IMG/VR virus record: IMGVR_UViG_3300022660_000043
Reading direction: 5' to 3' (one strand)
Origin: a virus
Lineage: Duplodnaviria; Caudoviricetes
DNA: 64,000 bases
Shown: one piece after another, positions 12,384 through 43,658 of the stretch
How positions within the stretch are numbered: position 1 is the first letter of the stretch
Layout: each line of letters starts with the position of its first letter
Program-made: the position numbers and the translations under genes
Notes under the pieces: model-generated
What the model was told of the DNA's origin: nothing
What the model saw: the letters and a program-made list of their open reading frames with translations, nothing else
Database searches by the model: none

Positions 12384-12454
12384 ATAAAATACTAATTGAC
12401 AGGGGCTACATCCCTGTCTTAACAGCATCCTTTCAGACAATTAGTATATATGGT

Positions 12455-13343
12455 AAGAAGGTTAAAAGACTGAGAATACATCTTCATAATTGCTACGGCT
12501 TAATGACCTTATTGATTAGTCACTTTTCCACTTCCTTTTGGGAAGTACCGCTCATGCCTGCAATTCGTCACCCCAGCACAAGGGCTCCAGGCTTGCTTTC
12601 GCCTTTACAGAAACAATTACTCGATTATCACTCCACTATCAACCTTGCGGGCTGTTCGAGGTTGCTACGCCTCTATAGATTCGTTTCAATCAAATACCAA
12701 ATGCTTGTGACACTTGATATCCCAGATTGCTTACCACTCTGGGCTTAAGACACTTTTCTTTGTTTCCAACAATAGGTTTTTACTCATGACATTGTTTTCC
12801 TATGACAACCGCTCTGCCTACTGAGCTACCGGCGTATAAAAGAGATAAGTGCTAATTATCTCTATAGATAAAATTGGCACGCCGGGTGGGACTCGAACCC
12901 ACGCTAAGTTGAGATTTGACAGAAGACAGACTATTGTTGTAGTTCTCACACCTTTTGAGTGCAAGAATGCTACCCGCCTTCAACACTTTCCTTGGCTTCG
13001 TACTCGTATTTCTTATACCCACCGTAGCAGATATAAATGGAAGTCGCCCTTGCTTGCTAAAACTTGAACTATTTTACTTCCTGTAGCTTACCTTACCTCA
13101 TCAAATCCTTTTGCGTTGAAACCAGCTCCTTGCGAGAGCGAAAATAGTTCAGTCAGTTGACCCTACAACTATTTTCTTTTCATTTCATCATTGACAAGTT
13201 AGAACATGGGGTTAGCATATTCGTAAGAATCTTTTCAATTCTTACAGGTCCCGTCACACATTGCCTGAGGTACTGTTCATCACAGCGGAGTCTTGTCAGT
13301 ATACTCCTTTCATTCCCTTACGGGAAGTTATCGGTCAGGCCCG
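12455..13343 (-). ncRNA. Large structured ncRNA, GOLLD-like, containing a circularly permuted tRNA domain
   Basis: About 890 nt with no credible ORF, starting just after the promoter at 13352. Many GNRA/CAAAAGG hairpins and a 3' ...GUAUUCUCAG end resembling GOLLD as recalled; lies in a tRNA array. Confidence 0.55.
12807..12912 (-). ncRNA. Circularly permuted tRNA-like domain
   Basis: T-arm + CCGGCGU-GCCA (12875-12903) precedes ACGCCGG + D-arm (12811-12835); hairpin spacer between them. Confidence 0.8.
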
Positions 13344-13400
13344 TATATTATATTATACAATATAATTTTTAAAATTTTAATTTAATTTTTAAAAAATTTT

Positions 13401-13524
13401 AGGCTGTTTATTTCATTCCATTTACTACAGCTTCTGGTATTCACGACTATGTACAGTTGGACCCTCTACCACTTAAGGATAGCTCCCTCTATCGGTATAT
13501 ACACATGTCTGCTTCGTAGCACCT
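13401..13524 (-). ncRNA. Family B scaffold RNA copy 1
   Basis: AGGUGCUACGAAGC...AGCUGUAGUAAAUGGA...AAACAGCCU. Confidence 0.75.
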
Positions 13525-13528
13525 ATTA

Positions 13529-13615
13529 GTATCTTCAATAATATTCTCGCAACCTAAACTATCACGCCATAGCGGCGATGTGGGATTTCAACCCATGCCT
13601 TTATTCCGTCGATAC
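13529..13615 (-). ncRNA. Permuted tRNA-like (YrlA-like) RNA
   Basis: GUAUC/GAUAC closing stem, T-arm AUGGG-UUGAAAU-CCCAC, loop-closed acceptor stem, D-like arm. Confidence 0.55.
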
Positions 13616-13628
13616 ATTATAAAATAAT

Positions 13629-13786
13629 GAGCTGTTTTCACTTCCATTAACCACTAAACCATTTATACCTGTTCGGGGAGCTTTACTCCATAATTAGAGT
13701 CCTCTGCCGACGGCACATGCTAACACCGACAAGTTCTTAACACTCCGCTTGAGCATGCTGGGACTGTATAAATTCTTAGTGCACTC
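13629..13786 (-). ncRNA. Family B scaffold RNA copy 2 (divergent)
   Basis: GAGUGCACUAA...UUAGUGGUUAAUGGA...AAACAGCUC. Confidence 0.6.
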
Positions 13787-13789
13787 TTT

Positions 13790-13864
13790 TGGTAGCGGGT
13801 ACGGGAATCGAACCCGTCTCTCCGGCTTGAAGGGCCGGCGTCTTAGCCGCTTGACTAACCCGCC
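13790..13864 (-). tRNA. trnE: tRNA-Glu(UUC)
   Basis: Glu-type D arm GTCAAGCGGCTAAGAC; loop CCTTCAA (C33). Confidence 0.85.
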
Positions 13865-14547: not shown

Positions 14548-15579
14548 TTATAATTTACCTAAAAATTTATACTGAATAGTTGAATTTCTAATAAGCTCAG
14601 AGTCTAACAACTCCATAAGTTCTTCATAACTTTGTATATTAGATAACATATTCAAAACTATGCTGCTAGAACTTAAATGTCGTAAATACATTTTACAAAC
14701 CTTAATAGCATCTTTTAAATGTACAGCAGAATTAAAATTATTTTTATAAACTAGATGTTTTTTTAAAACAGTTATTAATCTTTCTGAAGTTAAATCGTCT
14801 ATAAATTCGCCTTTTAATAAAGCTAAAGAATCTTGAAAGATAAATGGATTTCCCATAGCGCCTCTAGCAATCATTACACTATCTACTTCACAATACTCAA
14901 ACATTCTTAAAACATCCCGAGCATTAAAAAGATCACCATTACCTACTACAGGTATCTTAACTGCTTTTTTCGCTTTCTTAATATTATCTAGACTATTTGT
15001 ATTACATTTATAAGCATCAGTATAAGTTCTACCATGAACCGTAATAAAATCAACACCACAGCTTTCAGCCATACGTGCAAAATCAACAACATTTACAGAT
15101 TTAGCATCCCAACCAGTACGAATCTTTATACTTAAGGGTAAATTAGTAGATGATCTGGCTGCGCGTATAACTTTTTCAGCTCTTTTTAAGTCTTTCAGAA
15201 AACAAGCCCCTTCATTCAAATTAATGATATTAATATTTGGACATCCCATATTTAAATCAATAACTTTAGGCAATGTAGTAACTTTACGACCTAAATATTT
15301 ACCAGAAGATAAAGCCCCTATACAAAAAGCTGTATCTTTTTCAGCAAAACACCGTAGTTGCACGCCAATTGGCTCGGTACTTTCGTAGTCAATAATAGCA
15401 GCATTATTAAAAGTTGTAGCTAACTTATTCGTCTGCTCCTTAAAAAAACCACGAGTTGATACAAACTCTGTAAAACAAAATTCTGCTCCAAAATCTAAAC
15501 AAATTTTACGAAAAGCTTTATCTGTAATATTTGTCAATGGTGCTAGCATAAGCTTCGGCGGAATAAATTTATTACTCAT
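14548..15579 (-). CDS. dus: tRNA-dihydrouridine synthase (DusB-like)
   Basis: LAPL, IDLNMGCP, KIRTGWD, VHGRT, GNGD, MIARGAMGNP motifs. Confidence 0.92.
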   Translation of the reverse strand: MSNKFIPPKLMLAPLTNITDKAFRKICLDFGAEFCFTEFVSTRGFFKEQTNKLATTFNNAAIIDYESTEPIGVQLRCFAEKDTAFCIGALSSGKYLGRKVTTLPKVIDLNMGCPNINIINLNEGACFLKDLKRAEKVIRAARSSTNLPLSIKIRTGWDAKSVNVVDFARMAESCGVDFITVHGRTYTDAYKCNTNSLDNIKKAKKAVKIPVVGNGDLFNARDVLRMFEYCEVDSVMIARGAMGNPFIFQDSLALLKGEFIDDLTSERLITVLKKHLVYKNNFNSAVHLKDAIKVCKMYLRHLSSSSIVLNMLSNIQSYEELMELLDSELIRNSTIQYKFLGKL

Positions 15580-23157: not shown

Positions 23158-23799
23158 CTAAATAATTTGATAACACCAAATATAACCATAAGCGGTTTTA
23201 CGTTTACCGTTACAAACATCAGCAATATGTCCAGCTGAACCACGATCTGTTTGTTTATTTTGCACTTTACCTAAAGCTTTCACAGCAGCTAAAGTAGACG
23301 GAAAGGTTGCAATATATTCACCCGTAAGTGAGTATTGTTCAACAGCTTTTCCAGTTTTTTCTAATAGCACCTCAGAAGATGTTCTCACATCAACTTGCTT
23401 AATTCGTAAAATTTTACGAACTGTTTCCCGGTGGATATTAAGTCTGTCTGCTACGGCTGAAATGGTACCGAGTTGTTTATATGCAGTAACCACTAAGTCA
23501 TAGTCTAAGTATTTTTTACCATCGCCACCCAAAGTAGCATTATAGCCCTGCTTATAGGTCTGCTTAGTCGAAATCCAAAATATTTCACGTTCTTCGGGTG
23601 ACTCTGTTTCTTCCAATAATTCAATATGAAAATGTTCAATACCGTACTTTCGCATTGCAGCATATAAAGGACGTTTTTCACAACGATTGCGAAAAGCTTC
23701 TTTACAATGCTCTTTAAACCTACGCTCGATTGCAAATTCAGTCTTCCCTATATAACTTTTATTATTTATGTCATTAATAATTTCATAAATATAAGCCAT
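23158..23799 (-). CDS. GIY-YIG homing endonuclease with NUMOD1-like C-terminus
   Basis: YIY...YIG, RFxEH, GYN, KTAYGYIW; free-standing within the tRNA array. Confidence 0.9.
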   Translation of the reverse strand: MAYIYEIINDINNKSYIGKTEFAIERRFKEHCKEAFRNRCEKRPLYAAMRKYGIEHFHIELLEETESPEEREIFWISTKQTYKQGYNATLGGDGKKYLDYDLVVTAYKQLGTISAVADRLNIHRETVRKILRIKQVDVRTSSEVLLEKTGKAVEQYSLTGEYIATFPSTLAAVKALGKVQNKQTDRGSAGHIADVCNGKRKTAYGYIWCYQII

Positions 23800-26948: not shown

Positions 26949-26956
26949 TTTTATTA

Positions 26957-27073
26957 AGACCAAGCTAAATGAAAGCTGGAGCTCTCCCATCTGAGCTACA
27001 TCCCAAAGCGGAATGACGGGGCTCGAACCCGTGACCACCAGCTGGAATAATCAAAGAAATAAGCATTGGTTCT
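26957..27073 (-). ncRNA. Family A RNA with permuted tRNA domain (YrlA-like)
   Basis: AGAACCAAUGCUUAUUUCUU...T-arm, loop-closed acceptor, D-arm...AGCUUGGUCU. Confidence 0.85.
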
Positions 27074-27700: not shown

Positions 27701-27721
27701 CATAACTCCTCTAAATAAAAC

Positions 27722-27865
27722 GGCCAAGCTAATATATACGTTGCTCTACCACTGAGCTACAATCCACGAGTATTGGCCTTATTCAGGCAGTGCCTCCATC
27801 GGAAAGGTAGGACTCGAACCTACGACCTACGGCTTAGCAGGCATTAAGAAATAAGCATTGGCTCT
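27722..27865 (-). ncRNA. Family A RNA with permuted tRNA domain (YrlA-like), enlarged acceptor loop
   Basis: AGAGCCAAUGCUUAUUUCUU...GUAGGUUCGAGUCCUAC...GCUCAGUGGUAGAGC...AGCUUGGCC. Confidence 0.85.
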
Positions 27866-30647: not shown

Positions 30648-31589
30648 TTAATGTGCATTTACATCTGCTTCATGAATAGTATCAATATACCACTTCCAAT
30701 GAGAATCAAGCTTCTGATAATAACCTGAATTAAAGAAAGGCTCCATGTGCGTTGAGATAATCCAGCTTATAAGACAAATATCAGACATCTCTACATCACG
30801 TATCAAATGGTCAGGATCTAAGAACAAACCATATGCTAAGTAGCCACCGACACAGTGATGATCATAATAATGCGCAACATCTTCACCAGGCTTAAAGAAT
30901 TTAGTATAAGGCTTTCCAATATCATGCCAATAAGCTGCCTTAGCAAGCTTGTTATAAGCTGAATACTCTATTATATCAGTAGTAGCTGCGCCCTTATCAA
31001 TAATATTAACATGAGCCTGCATACAATGTTCCCAAATGCCTAACGTATGATGTGGATTGTCATGGGAGATATGTAGGTCTGAAGCTTTAGAAGCAACATA
31101 CTTAACCTGATCAAAGTCGTACTGATTTAGATGAACTTCAATCTTATCAAAGCCTTCATCAAGCCAAGGGCTTTGCCAGCGACGAAGCATCTTATCAATT
31201 ACGGCAGGACCTACCTTACGATCTCTAAAGCTGTCACGACGAATACACTCTTCAGGCTCTGCCCACACTATATGGCACTCTACAGTATCATGAGTGGGAT
31301 GAGCACATGCTATAGCTGACTTACGTGCCTTTCTGGTAACGTTAGTAGCATCATAAATGACAGTCTTATCTGCTCTAAGGTCTTCAATAGTGCGCTGTCT
31401 CATGAGCTCAAAAACTCTGCCATTATCTTCCTGAGAACCTGCATCCCCAAAAAGCTCTTCTCTGATAGCATCAGACGAATGAATTACAGTAACGCCAGTG
31501 CAGATAGCATCATCAACAGCCTTAAACTGCTCCGCATAATAACTCTTACCACTTCCAGGTAAGCCGACTAAAACAATCAATCTTCCCAC
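30648..31589 (-). CDS. Polynucleotide kinase (AAA_33) - HD phosphohydrolase fusion
   Basis: GLPGSGKS P-loop, SSDAIR, YDATN; HH..WEH, HDIGK, H..HM..D HD motifs. Confidence 0.88.
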   Translation of the reverse strand: MGRLIVLVGLPGSGKSYYAEQFKAVDDAICTGVTVIHSSDAIREELFGDAGSQEDNGRVFELMRQRTIEDLRADKTVIYDATNVTRKARKSAIACAHPTHDTVECHIVWAEPEECIRRDSFRDRKVGPAVIDKMLRRWQSPWLDEGFDKIEVHLNQYDFDQVKYVASKASDLHISHDNPHHTLGIWEHCMQAHVNIIDKGAATTDIIEYSAYNKLAKAAYWHDIGKPYTKFFKPGEDVAHYYDHHCVGGYLAYGLFLDPDHLIRDVEMSDICLISWIISTHMEPFFNSGYYQKLDSHWKWYIDTIHEADVNAH

Positions 31590-42239: not shown

Positions 42240-43658
42240 TTACATCTCCGCAAGGACATCCTCTGCTACGTCAGCAGTAGACTCGGCAAGCTTCTCGCCA
42301 ATAATTCCCTCAAGAACCTTGAAAGAGAAATTTTTATGCTTGAAAGCAGCAAACTTAGGACGGTTTACGATACGTACCACTACACCCTCACGAGTATGGG
42401 TCTTGCCAACAGGATCAGGACCATCGAAGTAGTCCTCAGCGCAACGCATAATCATATCTCCAAGCTCACCATCGCCAATAAGGTAATCATGATCATAGCC
42501 ATTAGGTGCAGTGAAATGAAGTCTATCCTCAGAAAGAGTAGCCTTACCAAATACAAGAACAGTCTTTACACCCATCTGCTCACAACGGTAACGCATGAAG
42601 TCAGGAGTATACTCTACAACCTCTCCGTCCTCGTTAGTCATAGTCATACGATATACGTAGATATCTGACTGAGGCAGTGCATTTTCAACACCAATTTGGT
42701 TATGCTCTTCATCAAGATAATACCCAACACCATTAGGAGCACAGCCATAGGAGAACACAGTCTCCTTACCATACTGCTTTACAAAGTCTTTACCAAGCTT
42801 CTCGTTATTACCATTACCCATGATAGGTGCTCCAGTGTGAGTAAAGCCTACGACCTCGTAATAAACAGTCTCACCCTTCCAAAGCTTTCCTACAAAAGTA
42901 TCATGATGCTGCTTACGGAACTCATTAGAGCCATAGAAGCCGCCATCAAAAGTATCGAGTACTACACGACGAGTACCAGATACATAGCCCCAGTCATATA
43001 CAGGCTTACCAGGTCTATGAAGAATACGATCCATAATAGATCTCTTATAACCAGTAAGTACCTTCAAATGGCCAGTACGCTGGGAAGTACCATGCATCTT
43101 AAGAGAAAGCTCAAGCTCATCGCCAACCTTGAAAGCTCCAAGATTATACGCAAGCTGCTCAGTATCTGCATGCTCTGCAAAGGTAGGTGCAATAGGTGCC
43201 TTAAACTTACGAGTATGATTACCCTCAGATACATGACCTCTACGTGCCTGAGTACGAGGGATGTACTTAGTGCAAATCTCCTCACCATTAAATACATCAA
43301 TACGGTCTCCTACTCTAAGGGTAGAGATATCACCAAAAGACTCAAGACAATGGAGAGGAAGGAAAAGACCATCAGACTTCTCGCCTCTAAGCTTAATAGC
43401 AGTTACATTTCTCTTATCAGGATCCATGTAGCCACCAATATTATTGCCATCAGCATCCTTCTTTCTAAGAAGGTTATTAGCCTCAGCAAACTTCACAGAA
43501 AGCTGGCCACCGGTAGGGAAATATACACCAAGTTGGCCCTCAGTATAATCAAGAGATACGCAAACAGTGTTACCGAACACATCAGCAAGCTGCAAACGAT
43601 CTGCATTAGGATGCTTTCTAACATCCTTCAAAGTAGTTACAATAGCATAATAACTCAT
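42240..43658 (-). CDS. ATP-dependent RNA ligase with N-terminal tRNA-binding OB fold (DRB0094-like)
   Basis: HPNADRL, KLRGEKSDG, KMHGTS (motif I), YYEVVG, EGVVVR, FKHKN. Confidence 0.88.
   Translation of the reverse strand: MSYYAIVTTLKDVRKHPNADRLQLADVFGNTVCVSLDYTEGQLGVYFPTGGQLSVKFAEANNLLRKKDADGNNIGGYMDPDKRNVTAIKLRGEKSDGLFLPLHCLESFGDISTLRVGDRIDVFNGEEICTKYIPRTQARRGHVSEGNHTRKFKAPIAPTFAEHADTEQLAYNLGAFKVGDELELSLKMHGTSQRTGHLKVLTGYKRSIMDRILHRPGKPVYDWGYVSGTRRVVLDTFDGGFYGSNEFRKQHHDTFVGKLWKGETVYYEVVGFTHTGAPIMGNGNNEKLGKDFVKQYGKETVFSYGCAPNGVGYYLDEEHNQIGVENALPQSDIYVYRMTMTNEDGEVVEYTPDFMRYRCEQMGVKTVLVFGKATLSEDRLHFTAPNGYDHDYLIGDGELGDMIMRCAEDYFDGPDPVGKTHTREGVVVRIVNRPKFAAFKHKNFSFKVLEGIIGEKLAESTADVAEDVLAEM

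Follow-up and report, generated by a model that had tools for sequence, protein, structure and literature searches.

A circularly permuted tRNA-like module in the linker of a phage GOLLD RNA

GOLLD RNAs rank among the largest non-coding RNAs of bacteria and phages, and to our knowledge they have no known function. The GOLLD gene analyzed here is encoded in a stretch of 64,000 nucleotides (nt) of viral DNA (IMG/VR record IMGVR_UViG_3300022660_000043; Duplodnaviria, Caudoviricetes), hereafter the window, and its linker holds a transfer RNA (tRNA)-shaped module arranged in circularly permuted order. Comparison of homologous units makes it almost certain that this module folds like a tRNA, under selection in all four stems and in the tertiary pairs 15:48 and 19:56. 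The explanation that we favour overall, with a probability of roughly 0.55, is a GOLLD RNA that is cleaved within this permuted tRNA module into two pieces and remains clamped by it.

A permuted tRNA module in the GOLLD linker

The Rfam model of GOLLD (RF02032) matches positions 12467-12982 of the window on the minus strand with 156.2 bits (E 7e-42, model positions 1-416 of 416), above the gathering cut-off of 150 bits set for a model that spans the conserved 3' domain only; relatives score 123-163 bits. This match bears out the assignment to GOLLD proposed in the initial annotation for an approximately 890-nt structured, non-coding tract at 12455-13343, for which no strand had been given. With its 5' domain, the full gene extends from about 13344 down to about 12460 on the minus strand, and the tract is essentially one GOLLD gene. 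At some 880 nt from a promoter-like site to position ~12460, it attains the large size typical of the family (at least ~800 nt) and has the expected layout, in which a variable linker connects a variable 5' domain to the 3' domain, and no open reading frame (ORF) longer than 81 amino acids overlaps it. The setting in a phage tRNA array had also been anticipated: the gene sits among 33 phage tRNAs detected by ARAGORN, all of them on the minus strand like GOLLD itself, and its relatives lie on IMG/VR contigs of 122-233 kb. The locus is best explained as a single minus-strand transcription unit of about 880 nt encoding a GOLLD RNA.

The module occupies what the GOLLD model treats as an unstructured linker, between the first hairpin and the 3' core. 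All its elements are on the minus strand and succeed one another, from 5' to 3', as variable region, T arm, acceptor 3' strand, G73, CCA, spacer, acceptor 5' strand, D arm and anticodon-like arm, with the permutation break between nt 43 and nt 44, at the boundary of anticodon stem and variable loop. Every element of the circularly permuted tRNA noticed earlier, with its internal NCCA and its complementary halves CCGGCGU/ACGCCGG, can be placed between 12910 and 12791:

12903..12910, minus strand: variable region AACUUAGC, the point of entry of the GOLLD chain into the tRNA fold; nt 48, which forms the Levitt pair with G15, is C12903
12886..12902, minus strand: T arm GUGGG-UUCGAGU-CCCAC, 100% paired in homologues
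12885-12879, minus strand: acceptor 3' strand CCGGCGU, followed by G73 (12878) and CCA (12877-12875, with A76 at 12875)
12836..12874, minus strand: 39-nt spacer closing the acceptor stem; A-2 is 12837 and U-1 is 12836, and nucleotide +1 comes next
12842-12862, minus strand: spacer hairpin GAGAUAA-UUAGCAC-UUAUCUC, with a stem of 7 base pairs (bp) and the loop UUAGCAC at 12855-12849
12827..12835, minus strand: acceptor 5' strand ACGCCGG (12835-12829, nucleotide +1 being 12835), then U8 and A9
12811..12826, minus strand: D arm GCUC-AGUAGGCA-GAGC, carrying A14, G15, G18, G19 and A21; its stem is invariant and G26 follows
12791..12809, minus strand: anticodon-like arm GUUGU-CAUAGGAAA-ACAAU, a 5-bp stem with a 9-nt loop; the chain leaves the fold after nt 43 (12791)

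All the residues of the tRNA tertiary core (U8, A14, G18 G19, U54 U55 C56, R15:Y48 and G19:C56) are present. When the 5' half is joined by script to the 3' half, ARAGORN calls a 78-nt tRNA in the rotated sequence; in the native order, neither ARAGORN nor the Rfam tRNA model (RF00005) makes a tRNA call at 12791-12910. Minimum-energy and centroid folds of the native 134 nt recover the T arm, the acceptor stem, the spacer hairpin and the D arm. The 7-nt anticodon loop and the conserved anticodon and identity elements of a canonical tRNA are absent, and the module has no close paralogue among the 33 tRNAs of the array (best global score of 21 over 78 nt).

Homologues were gathered by pattern scans of IMG/VR and metagenome contigs, and 13 contigs of a single GOLLD clade were found to hold the permuted unit, in 12 distinct unit sequences; additional truncated copies were also recovered. 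The members originate from IMG/VR (L001-L004, L078, L087, L093 and L193, on contigs of up to 233 kb) and from metagenomes (L062-L064, L067, L072 and L075). The window locus has no blastn match among 50,697 GenBank phage records, and the clade pattern returned 0 matches in prokaryote genome contigs. GOLLDs of this clade are 62-97% identical to that of the window, and the permuted unit is present in every one of them whose linker is present.

Across the 12 distinct units (alignment A3), 99.6% of the pair cells hold standard pairs, as opposed to 32-58% when the 3' partner is shifted by 1-3 columns, and none of 500 shuffles matched the observed paired percentage or covariation score. Both sides have changed in 13 of 23 pairs, and compensatory changes are seen in 12 of the 22 secondary-structure pairs and in both tertiary pairs, among GOLLDs whose overall divergence reaches 38%. 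Pairing in the stems amounts to 98-100% across units. Compensatory changes affect six of the seven acceptor pairs, giving rise to variants such as CCGGCGU/ACGCCGG, CUGCCGC/GCGGCAG, CACCGCC/GGCGGUG and CCCGGGU/ACCCGGG, and the two halves singled out by the initial annotation are kept, and covary, in every homologue found. The T stem shows a change from G:C to A:U at one pair in 4 sequences, and the anticodon-like arm is paired in 98% of cells, with compensatory changes in four of its five pairs. At the tertiary level, the Levitt pair 15:48 is paired in 100% of cases and covaries, being A:U in 8 sequences and G:C in 4, and 19:56 switches from G19:C56 to C19:G56 in L001 and L072. U8, A9, A14, A21, the D stem and the core of the T loop are invariant across units, and the AACUUAG of the variable region is nearly so. 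Covariation of this kind argues that a tRNA L-fold is under selection, and that the module is neither a chance arrangement nor a relic.

The same alignment amends one element of the earlier description, in which an anticodon stem GUUG/CAAC led into the flanking RNA. This closing helix is paired in 63.9% of cells among homologues, versus 98% for the local GUUGU/ACAAU hairpin, and covariation led us to reject it in favour of that hairpin with its 9-nt loop. The loop is 9 nt long in all 12 units and varies in sequence; when forced into a 7-nt frame, its would-be anticodon reads AGG, UUG, UGA or AAU depending on the member. A pairing partner for the loop was sought, and no site complementary in all members was found. 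Given the length of the loop and its variable 'anticodon', there is no conserved decoding function for the fourth arm.

L063 (2204-2782, minus strand) retains both the GOLLD 3' domain and the permuted tRNA, but upstream of approximately tRNA nt 48 its sequence has no relation to the first hairpin and 5' domain seen in the clade; the recombination breakpoint coincides with the tRNA boundary. The 5' domain, replaced by other sequence in L063, is kept in most clade members. The remaining features of the GOLLD gene and its borders are as follows:

13352..13380, minus strand: sigma-70-like promoter (TTAAAA, 17 nt, TATAAT; 10/12 matches), just upstream of the GOLLD 5' end
12983..13344, minus strand: non-coding, variable 5' domain of GOLLD, ~360 nt, defined by alignments and outside the Rfam model
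12921..12982, minus strand: hairpin at model positions 1-62, the first in the Rfam model of GOLLD, immediately preceding the linker in the model alignment
12467..12790, minus strand: conserved GOLLD 3' core, with pseudoknot and hairpins (Rfam positions ~114-416), from the model alignment
12398..12418, minus strand: terminator-like hairpin with a weak U tract, 3' of the GOLLD end and before tRNA-Glu(CUC)

Alignments show that the TTGTATAATATAAT block at the promoter site is kept in L001, L003, L064 and L072. Upstream of the promoter, an ORF-poor tract of ~400 nt (13380-13790, minus strand) separates GOLLD from tRNA-Glu(UUC); within it, a short closed stem comes after a T-arm-like GGCAUGGGUUGAAAUCCCAC. 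Such a tract would not fit in L001, where tRNA-Glu(UUC) and the start of GOLLD are ~40-60 nt apart. Genes related to tRNA biology are found in the array and close to it, all on the minus strand: they encode a dihydrouridine synthase (14548-15579), a GIY-YIG homing-type endonuclease (23158-23799), a Pnkp-like kinase (30648-31589) and an RNA ligase (42240-43658) that is 49% identical to the ligases of Bacillus phages Kirov and PBC2. In L067 (3042-3662, 294.6 bits) and L062 (3600-4172, 213.7 bits) a ROOL RNA (RF03087) adjoins the permuted-tRNA GOLLD, and both cage-forming RNAs are hence encoded side by side in these two contigs; no ROOL reaches the Rfam gathering threshold in the window.

The acceptor end and the spacer

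Judged from its sequence, the acceptor end of the module keeps all the signals of a bacterial precursor tRNA, namely a 7-bp GC-rich stem on a 5-bp T stem, N73-CCA and U-1. Permuted acceptors have seven of seven pairs, mostly GC, and NCCA is invariant in all 12 distinct units, with a discriminator that is G in 6 and C in 6. Equally invariant are A-2 and U-1 before nucleotide +1, and the spacer that separates them from NCCA ranges from 16 to 41 nt and is otherwise variable in sequence. The ordinary tRNAs of the array bear these signals as well: CCA is encoded in 31 of 33 and T is found at -1 in 29 of 33, and a ...TAT leader is present in most. The RNA ends previously proposed at about 12875 and 12835 fall, on sequence grounds, exactly on the CCA end and on nucleotide +1. 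No promoter-like site was found on the coding strand of the spacer, and a role of its hairpin as terminator was rejected, the U tract not being conserved.

Two lines of published work bear on these signals. GOLLD linkers can hold tRNAs, and the linker lies inside a cage (10.1101/2024.12.08.627333; PMC12990946); the one solved full-length GOLLD forms a cage of 14 copies with the linker in its interior, and it is from cryo-electron microscopy of other members only that assembly into a multimeric nanocage is known (10.1101/2024.12.08.627333). The YrlA RNAs, a group of bacterial and phage Y RNAs, in turn bear a tRNA-like module in the order T arm, loop-closed acceptor and D arm (10.1101/312249; PMC4201824). 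That of M. smegmatis is the only one with a 7-bp acceptor; RNase P cleaves it in vivo, as does M1 RNA in vitro, the 5' half acquires or ends in CCA, and both halves co-purify with Rsr (PMC4201824; 10.1101/312249); YrlA members with shorter acceptor stems are uncut (PMC4201824). The window itself contains two YrlA-type mimics on the minus strand, at 26951-27044 and 27715-27823, each composed of a closing stem, a T arm, a short loop-closed acceptor and a D arm, without CCA; they score 36 and 24.8 bits, respectively, with a covariance model of the permuted unit and have no match at the Rfam gathering level.

In the explanation that we favour, the linker between the GOLLD domains would have given way to a complete tRNA-shaped module whose order is circularly permuted. 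The chain would enter it at the variable loop (nt 44) and exit after the anticodon-like stem (nt 43), so that the whole L-shaped body would hang off the linker and, by analogy with the solved cage, point into the cage cavity. Host RNase P would probably cut in vivo at the predicted site between 12836 and 12835. Of the resulting pieces, the 5' one (~510 nt) would comprise the 5' domain and the T arm and end with the acceptor 3' strand, its CCA and the trailer, and the 3' one (~375 nt) would start at the acceptor 5' strand and continue through the D and anticodon-like arms into the 3' core; the tRNA fold would keep the two clamped, as in M. smegmatis YrlA. RNase P cleaves that RNA, whose acceptor likewise has 7 bp, and by analogy a two-piece GOLLD is a likely product. 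The 39-nt trailer might then be either trimmed to CCA or held docked on a 3'-domain hairpin by a loop-loop contact, and trimming to a free CCA end appears, overall, possible rather than probable. Specific aminoacylation is unlikely, for the acceptor identity pairs vary, as do the discriminator and the would-be anticodon, and G3:U70 is absent, the 3:70 pair being G:C, A:U or another standard pair and never G:U; the 'chargeable' CCA end of the initial annotation is, to judge from these positions, doubtful. The module is probably a tethered tRNA mimic that engages tRNA-handling factors, and not a decoding tRNA.

The linkers of other GOLLDs provide a point of comparison. Ordinary-order tRNA-likes occupy the same linker position as the permuted unit, ~320-440 nt from the GOLLD 3' end, and have two to six of seven acceptor pairs, with 0-2 GC pairs; nine of 10 distinct sequences are without CCA. 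A permuted-tRNA scanner and covariance model R1 did not find the permuted unit in the linkers of ~60 loci with a GOLLD 3' motif outside the clade, not all of them confirmed GOLLDs: the matches of R1 in these loci reach at most 44 bits and correspond to tandem-tRNA junctions or YrlA-like modules, as against 117-151 bits for true members. We infer from these sequences that, in the ordinary order, the acceptor end is the point of attachment to GOLLD, where a cut would free the two domains, and that its signals have consequently decayed; in the permuted order, the acceptor end would be off the chain and could stay canonical, because the two halves remain base-paired after the cut. The contrast suggests a reason for the permutation, which would afford a canonical acceptor without separating the two GOLLD domains.

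Several ordinary-order tRNA-likes are unusual in their own right. Those of L008, L012, L043, L051, L055 and L057 (~320 nt before the GOLLD 3' end) combine weak AU-rich acceptors with odd anticodon loops, for which ARAGORN reports the anticodons 'tca' (opal-suppressor type), a 2-nt 'tt' and a 4-nt 'tgat'. In L094 (~3886, plus strand) and L156 (~2524, minus strand), a full tRNA-Asn-like gene with a terminal CCA is succeeded, 15-17 nt further on, by a partial repeat of itself that comprises just the acceptor 5' strand and the D arm, and then by unrelated sequence, an arrangement that may represent a tandem-duplication intermediate toward the permuted layout.

The spacer of the permuted unit carries conserved structure of its own. 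Its hairpin folds in 9 of the 13 members, with covarying stems, and is not present in L064, L078, L093 and L193, which retain NCCA and U-1 despite its loss. The 7-nt spacer loop ends in GCAC or CCAC, and the only site complementary to it in all eight distinct sequences tested is a 3'-domain loop, UUGUGCU or UUGUGGU, at the same aligned position:

12572..12584, minus strand: clade-specific 3'-domain hairpin CCC-UUGUGCU-GGG, with the loop GUGCU at 12579-12575; candidate kissing partner of the spacer loop

The insertion that contains this hairpin is 31 nt long, against 11 nt at that place in the Rfam consensus, and the stem of the hairpin also covaries. The two loops swap in concert: members with GCAC have GUGC, and L062 and L067 have CCAC with GUGG. 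The spacer loop of L087 differs (GCUACA) and pairs with UGUGG through a one-position shift and one G-U wobble. Pairing of the spacer loop with a GUGC at the acceptor and discriminator was also considered; it holds in five of eight members only, and the 3'-domain loop is preferred. These observations suggest a loop-loop contact, within or between chains, between the spacer hairpin and the 3'-domain hairpin. We put it at about even odds, given that the covariation amounts to one or two independent events and that a complementary 5-mer is expected by chance about once per 900 nt.

Weighing the alternatives

Several considerations run counter to a cleaved GOLLD. The spacer hairpin is itself under selection, in both its covarying stems and its loop complementary to the 3'-domain loop, which argues that the spacer persists at least temporarily, and docking might protect the acceptor end against RNase P. 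Should the linker lie inside the assembled cage, cleavage by RNase P would need to precede assembly. Moreover, the YrlA of S. Typhimurium and the Yrn1 of D. radiodurans are uncleaved (PMC4201824), and the acceptor identity pairs, the discriminator and the would-be anticodon of the GOLLD unit are not conserved. The main alternative, a substantial one even if its chances fall short of even, builds on such points and holds that the module is an uncleaved structural tRNA mimic, in which the spacer keeps the acceptor closed, as in most YrlA RNAs, and is docked through its hairpin on that of the 3' domain. The module would then either provide a rigid L-shaped strut or attract, as bait inside the cage, tRNA-binding proteins or ribosomes, and NCCA and U-1 would be kept by a factor that binds without cutting (RNase P, the CCA-adding enzyme or a T-box-like partner). 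The covarying spacer hairpin of nine of 13 members and the loop complement of eight out of eight sequences, with its G/C swap and the additional case of L087, are in keeping with this proposal, as are the sub-threshold matches of the Rfam YrlA model to the unit (33.1 and 28.6 bits). Most YrlA RNAs are, in addition, uncleaved permuted tRNA mimics (10.1101/312249), and a review has proposed an 'inhibited storage' of linker tRNAs in the GOLLD cage (PMC12990946). What speaks against it is the exact combination of 7-bp acceptor, NCCA and U-1, the feature that separates the cleaved YrlA of M. smegmatis from uncleaved ones (PMC4201824), together with the retention of NCCA and U-1 in the four members that lack the spacer hairpin. 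The YrlA-type mimic at 26951-27044 of the window, with its short closed acceptor and no CCA, indicates further that the GOLLD unit is built differently.

Two other explanations carry far less weight. The locus could be a permuted gene for a free, working tRNA, excised at nt 43/44 and sealed there by the RNA ligase and kinase of the phage, with its acceptor opened by RNase P, to yield a standard tRNA by the route of Cyanidioschyzon and Thermofilum. The phage does encode an RNA ligase and a Pnkp-like kinase, and ARAGORN accepts the rotated sequence as a tRNA, but the 9-nt anticodon-like loop of all 12 units and a 7-nt-frame 'anticodon' that wanders among AGG, UUG, UGA and AAU make this very improbable. 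No conserved helix or bulge-helix-bulge joins the flanks (the closing helix is 64% paired), the anticodon-like arm is already continuous and local, and excision would sever GOLLD, even though the flanks are its best conserved parts. Less probable still is a decaying, functionless relic of a tandem tRNA duplication in the linker that lost its outer halves. The upstream CAAC does resemble a leftover second copy of the anticodon-stem 3' strand, and L094 and L156, where a full tRNA precedes a second copy of its own 5' portion, offer a possible intermediate; nonetheless, the compensatory changes in 12 of 22 secondary-structure pairs and both tertiary pairs contradict this explanation, as does an NCCA that remains invariant beside a freely varying spacer.

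Significance and comparison with known systems

The selection for a complete tRNA body in the linker, with acceptor end, CCA and RNase P signals intact, points to tRNA-handling enzymes as partners, and it gives an RNA class of unknown function a concrete and testable handle: whether GOLLD is one RNA or two, which ends it has and what binds them. A more ambitious proposal, to which we assign only a small chance, is that RNase P makes GOLLD two-piece, that each cage subunit (14 in one solved full-length GOLLD) carries a tethered tRNA-like acceptor arm with a free CCA inside, and that the cage then acts on the tRNA machinery of the host during infection. If this were true, the cage might capture or present aminoacyl-tRNA synthetases, the CCA-adding enzyme, EF-Tu, RNase P or ribosomes, or its own ends might be charged, and a first mechanistic link of GOLLD to tRNA biology would be established. 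A two-piece GOLLD, if real, would be only the third natural kind of two-piece RNA clamped by a tRNA fold, after transfer-messenger RNA (tmRNA) and M. smegmatis YrlA.

The closest precedent by location is the GOLLD with an ordinary linker tRNA, since a tRNA or pseudo-tRNA in the variable linker of GOLLD has already been published (10.1101/2024.12.08.627333; PMC12990946; PMC6582537). RNA family, tRNA-array setting and the position of a tRNA-shaped insert between first hairpin and 3' core are the same; here, however, the insert is permuted, and the chain is joined at nt 43/44 rather than at the acceptor end. Ordinary inserts mostly have weak, AU-rich acceptors without CCA, whereas the permuted unit has seven of seven pairs, NCCA and U-1. 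We found no paper describing a permuted tRNA inside GOLLD, in a search that did not cover Weinberg et al. 2009 or Morgado et al. 2020.

The initial annotation had drawn its analogy with two-piece tmRNA, the product, according to what Keiler et al. reportedly showed in 2000, of circularly permuted ssrA genes in α-proteobacteria, some cyanobacteria and β-proteobacteria. The analogy stands as far as the permuted order is concerned: T arm, acceptor 3' strand, CCA, intervening segment and acceptor 5' strand follow one another in both, and tmRNA is likewise processed into two RNAs held together by a tRNA-like domain attached to a large functional RNA. The GOLLD unit differs from it in lacking a tag reading frame and the alanine identity pair G3:U70 and in having D and anticodon-like arms, and ARAGORN finds no tmRNA in the window. 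Permuted tRNA genes are also known from Cyanidioschyzon merolae, other algae and Thermofilum pendens (as cited in 10.1101/312249), where they pass through a circular intermediate to become free standard tRNAs with 7-nt anticodon loops. They too place the 3' half before the 5' half and close the acceptor in the precursor, but the open ends of the GOLLD unit are continuous with the GOLLD domains, its 9-nt loop is not conserved and it has no splicing helix.

The tRNA-like module of YrlA (RF02553) is a closer analogue than tmRNA, sharing with the GOLLD unit both the order of T arm, loop-closed acceptor and D arm and the tRNA tertiary core. Its Rfam model scores 33.1 bits in the window unit and 28.6 in L062 and L063, against a cut-off of 69, and only the tRNA-like core is matched. 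The Ro60-binding stem and motif were not found in the GOLLD unit, where the corresponding RF02553 positions align as gaps and non-pairs, and TROVE (Ro60/Rsr) was not among the 10 of ~60 window ORFs scanned against Pfam. Unlike YrlA, the GOLLD unit has an anticodon-like arm, a genome-encoded NCCA and an acceptor loop of 16-41 nt, often with a hairpin, in place of a few nt; and YrlA is a Y RNA of ~110 nt, whereas the permuted unit is embedded in an RNA of ~880 nt. The GOLLD unit thus resembles the YrlA module in its presumed working but is not a YrlA, and through it the range of the YrlA-type 'permuted tRNA mimic' comes to include, besides small Ro60-bound RNAs, a giant RNA that self-assembles. 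Both tRNAs in GOLLD linkers and permuted tRNA mimics in YrlA were already known; what appears to be new is a permuted tRNA inside GOLLD and, with covariation, the complementarity between its spacer loop and a loop of the 3' domain.

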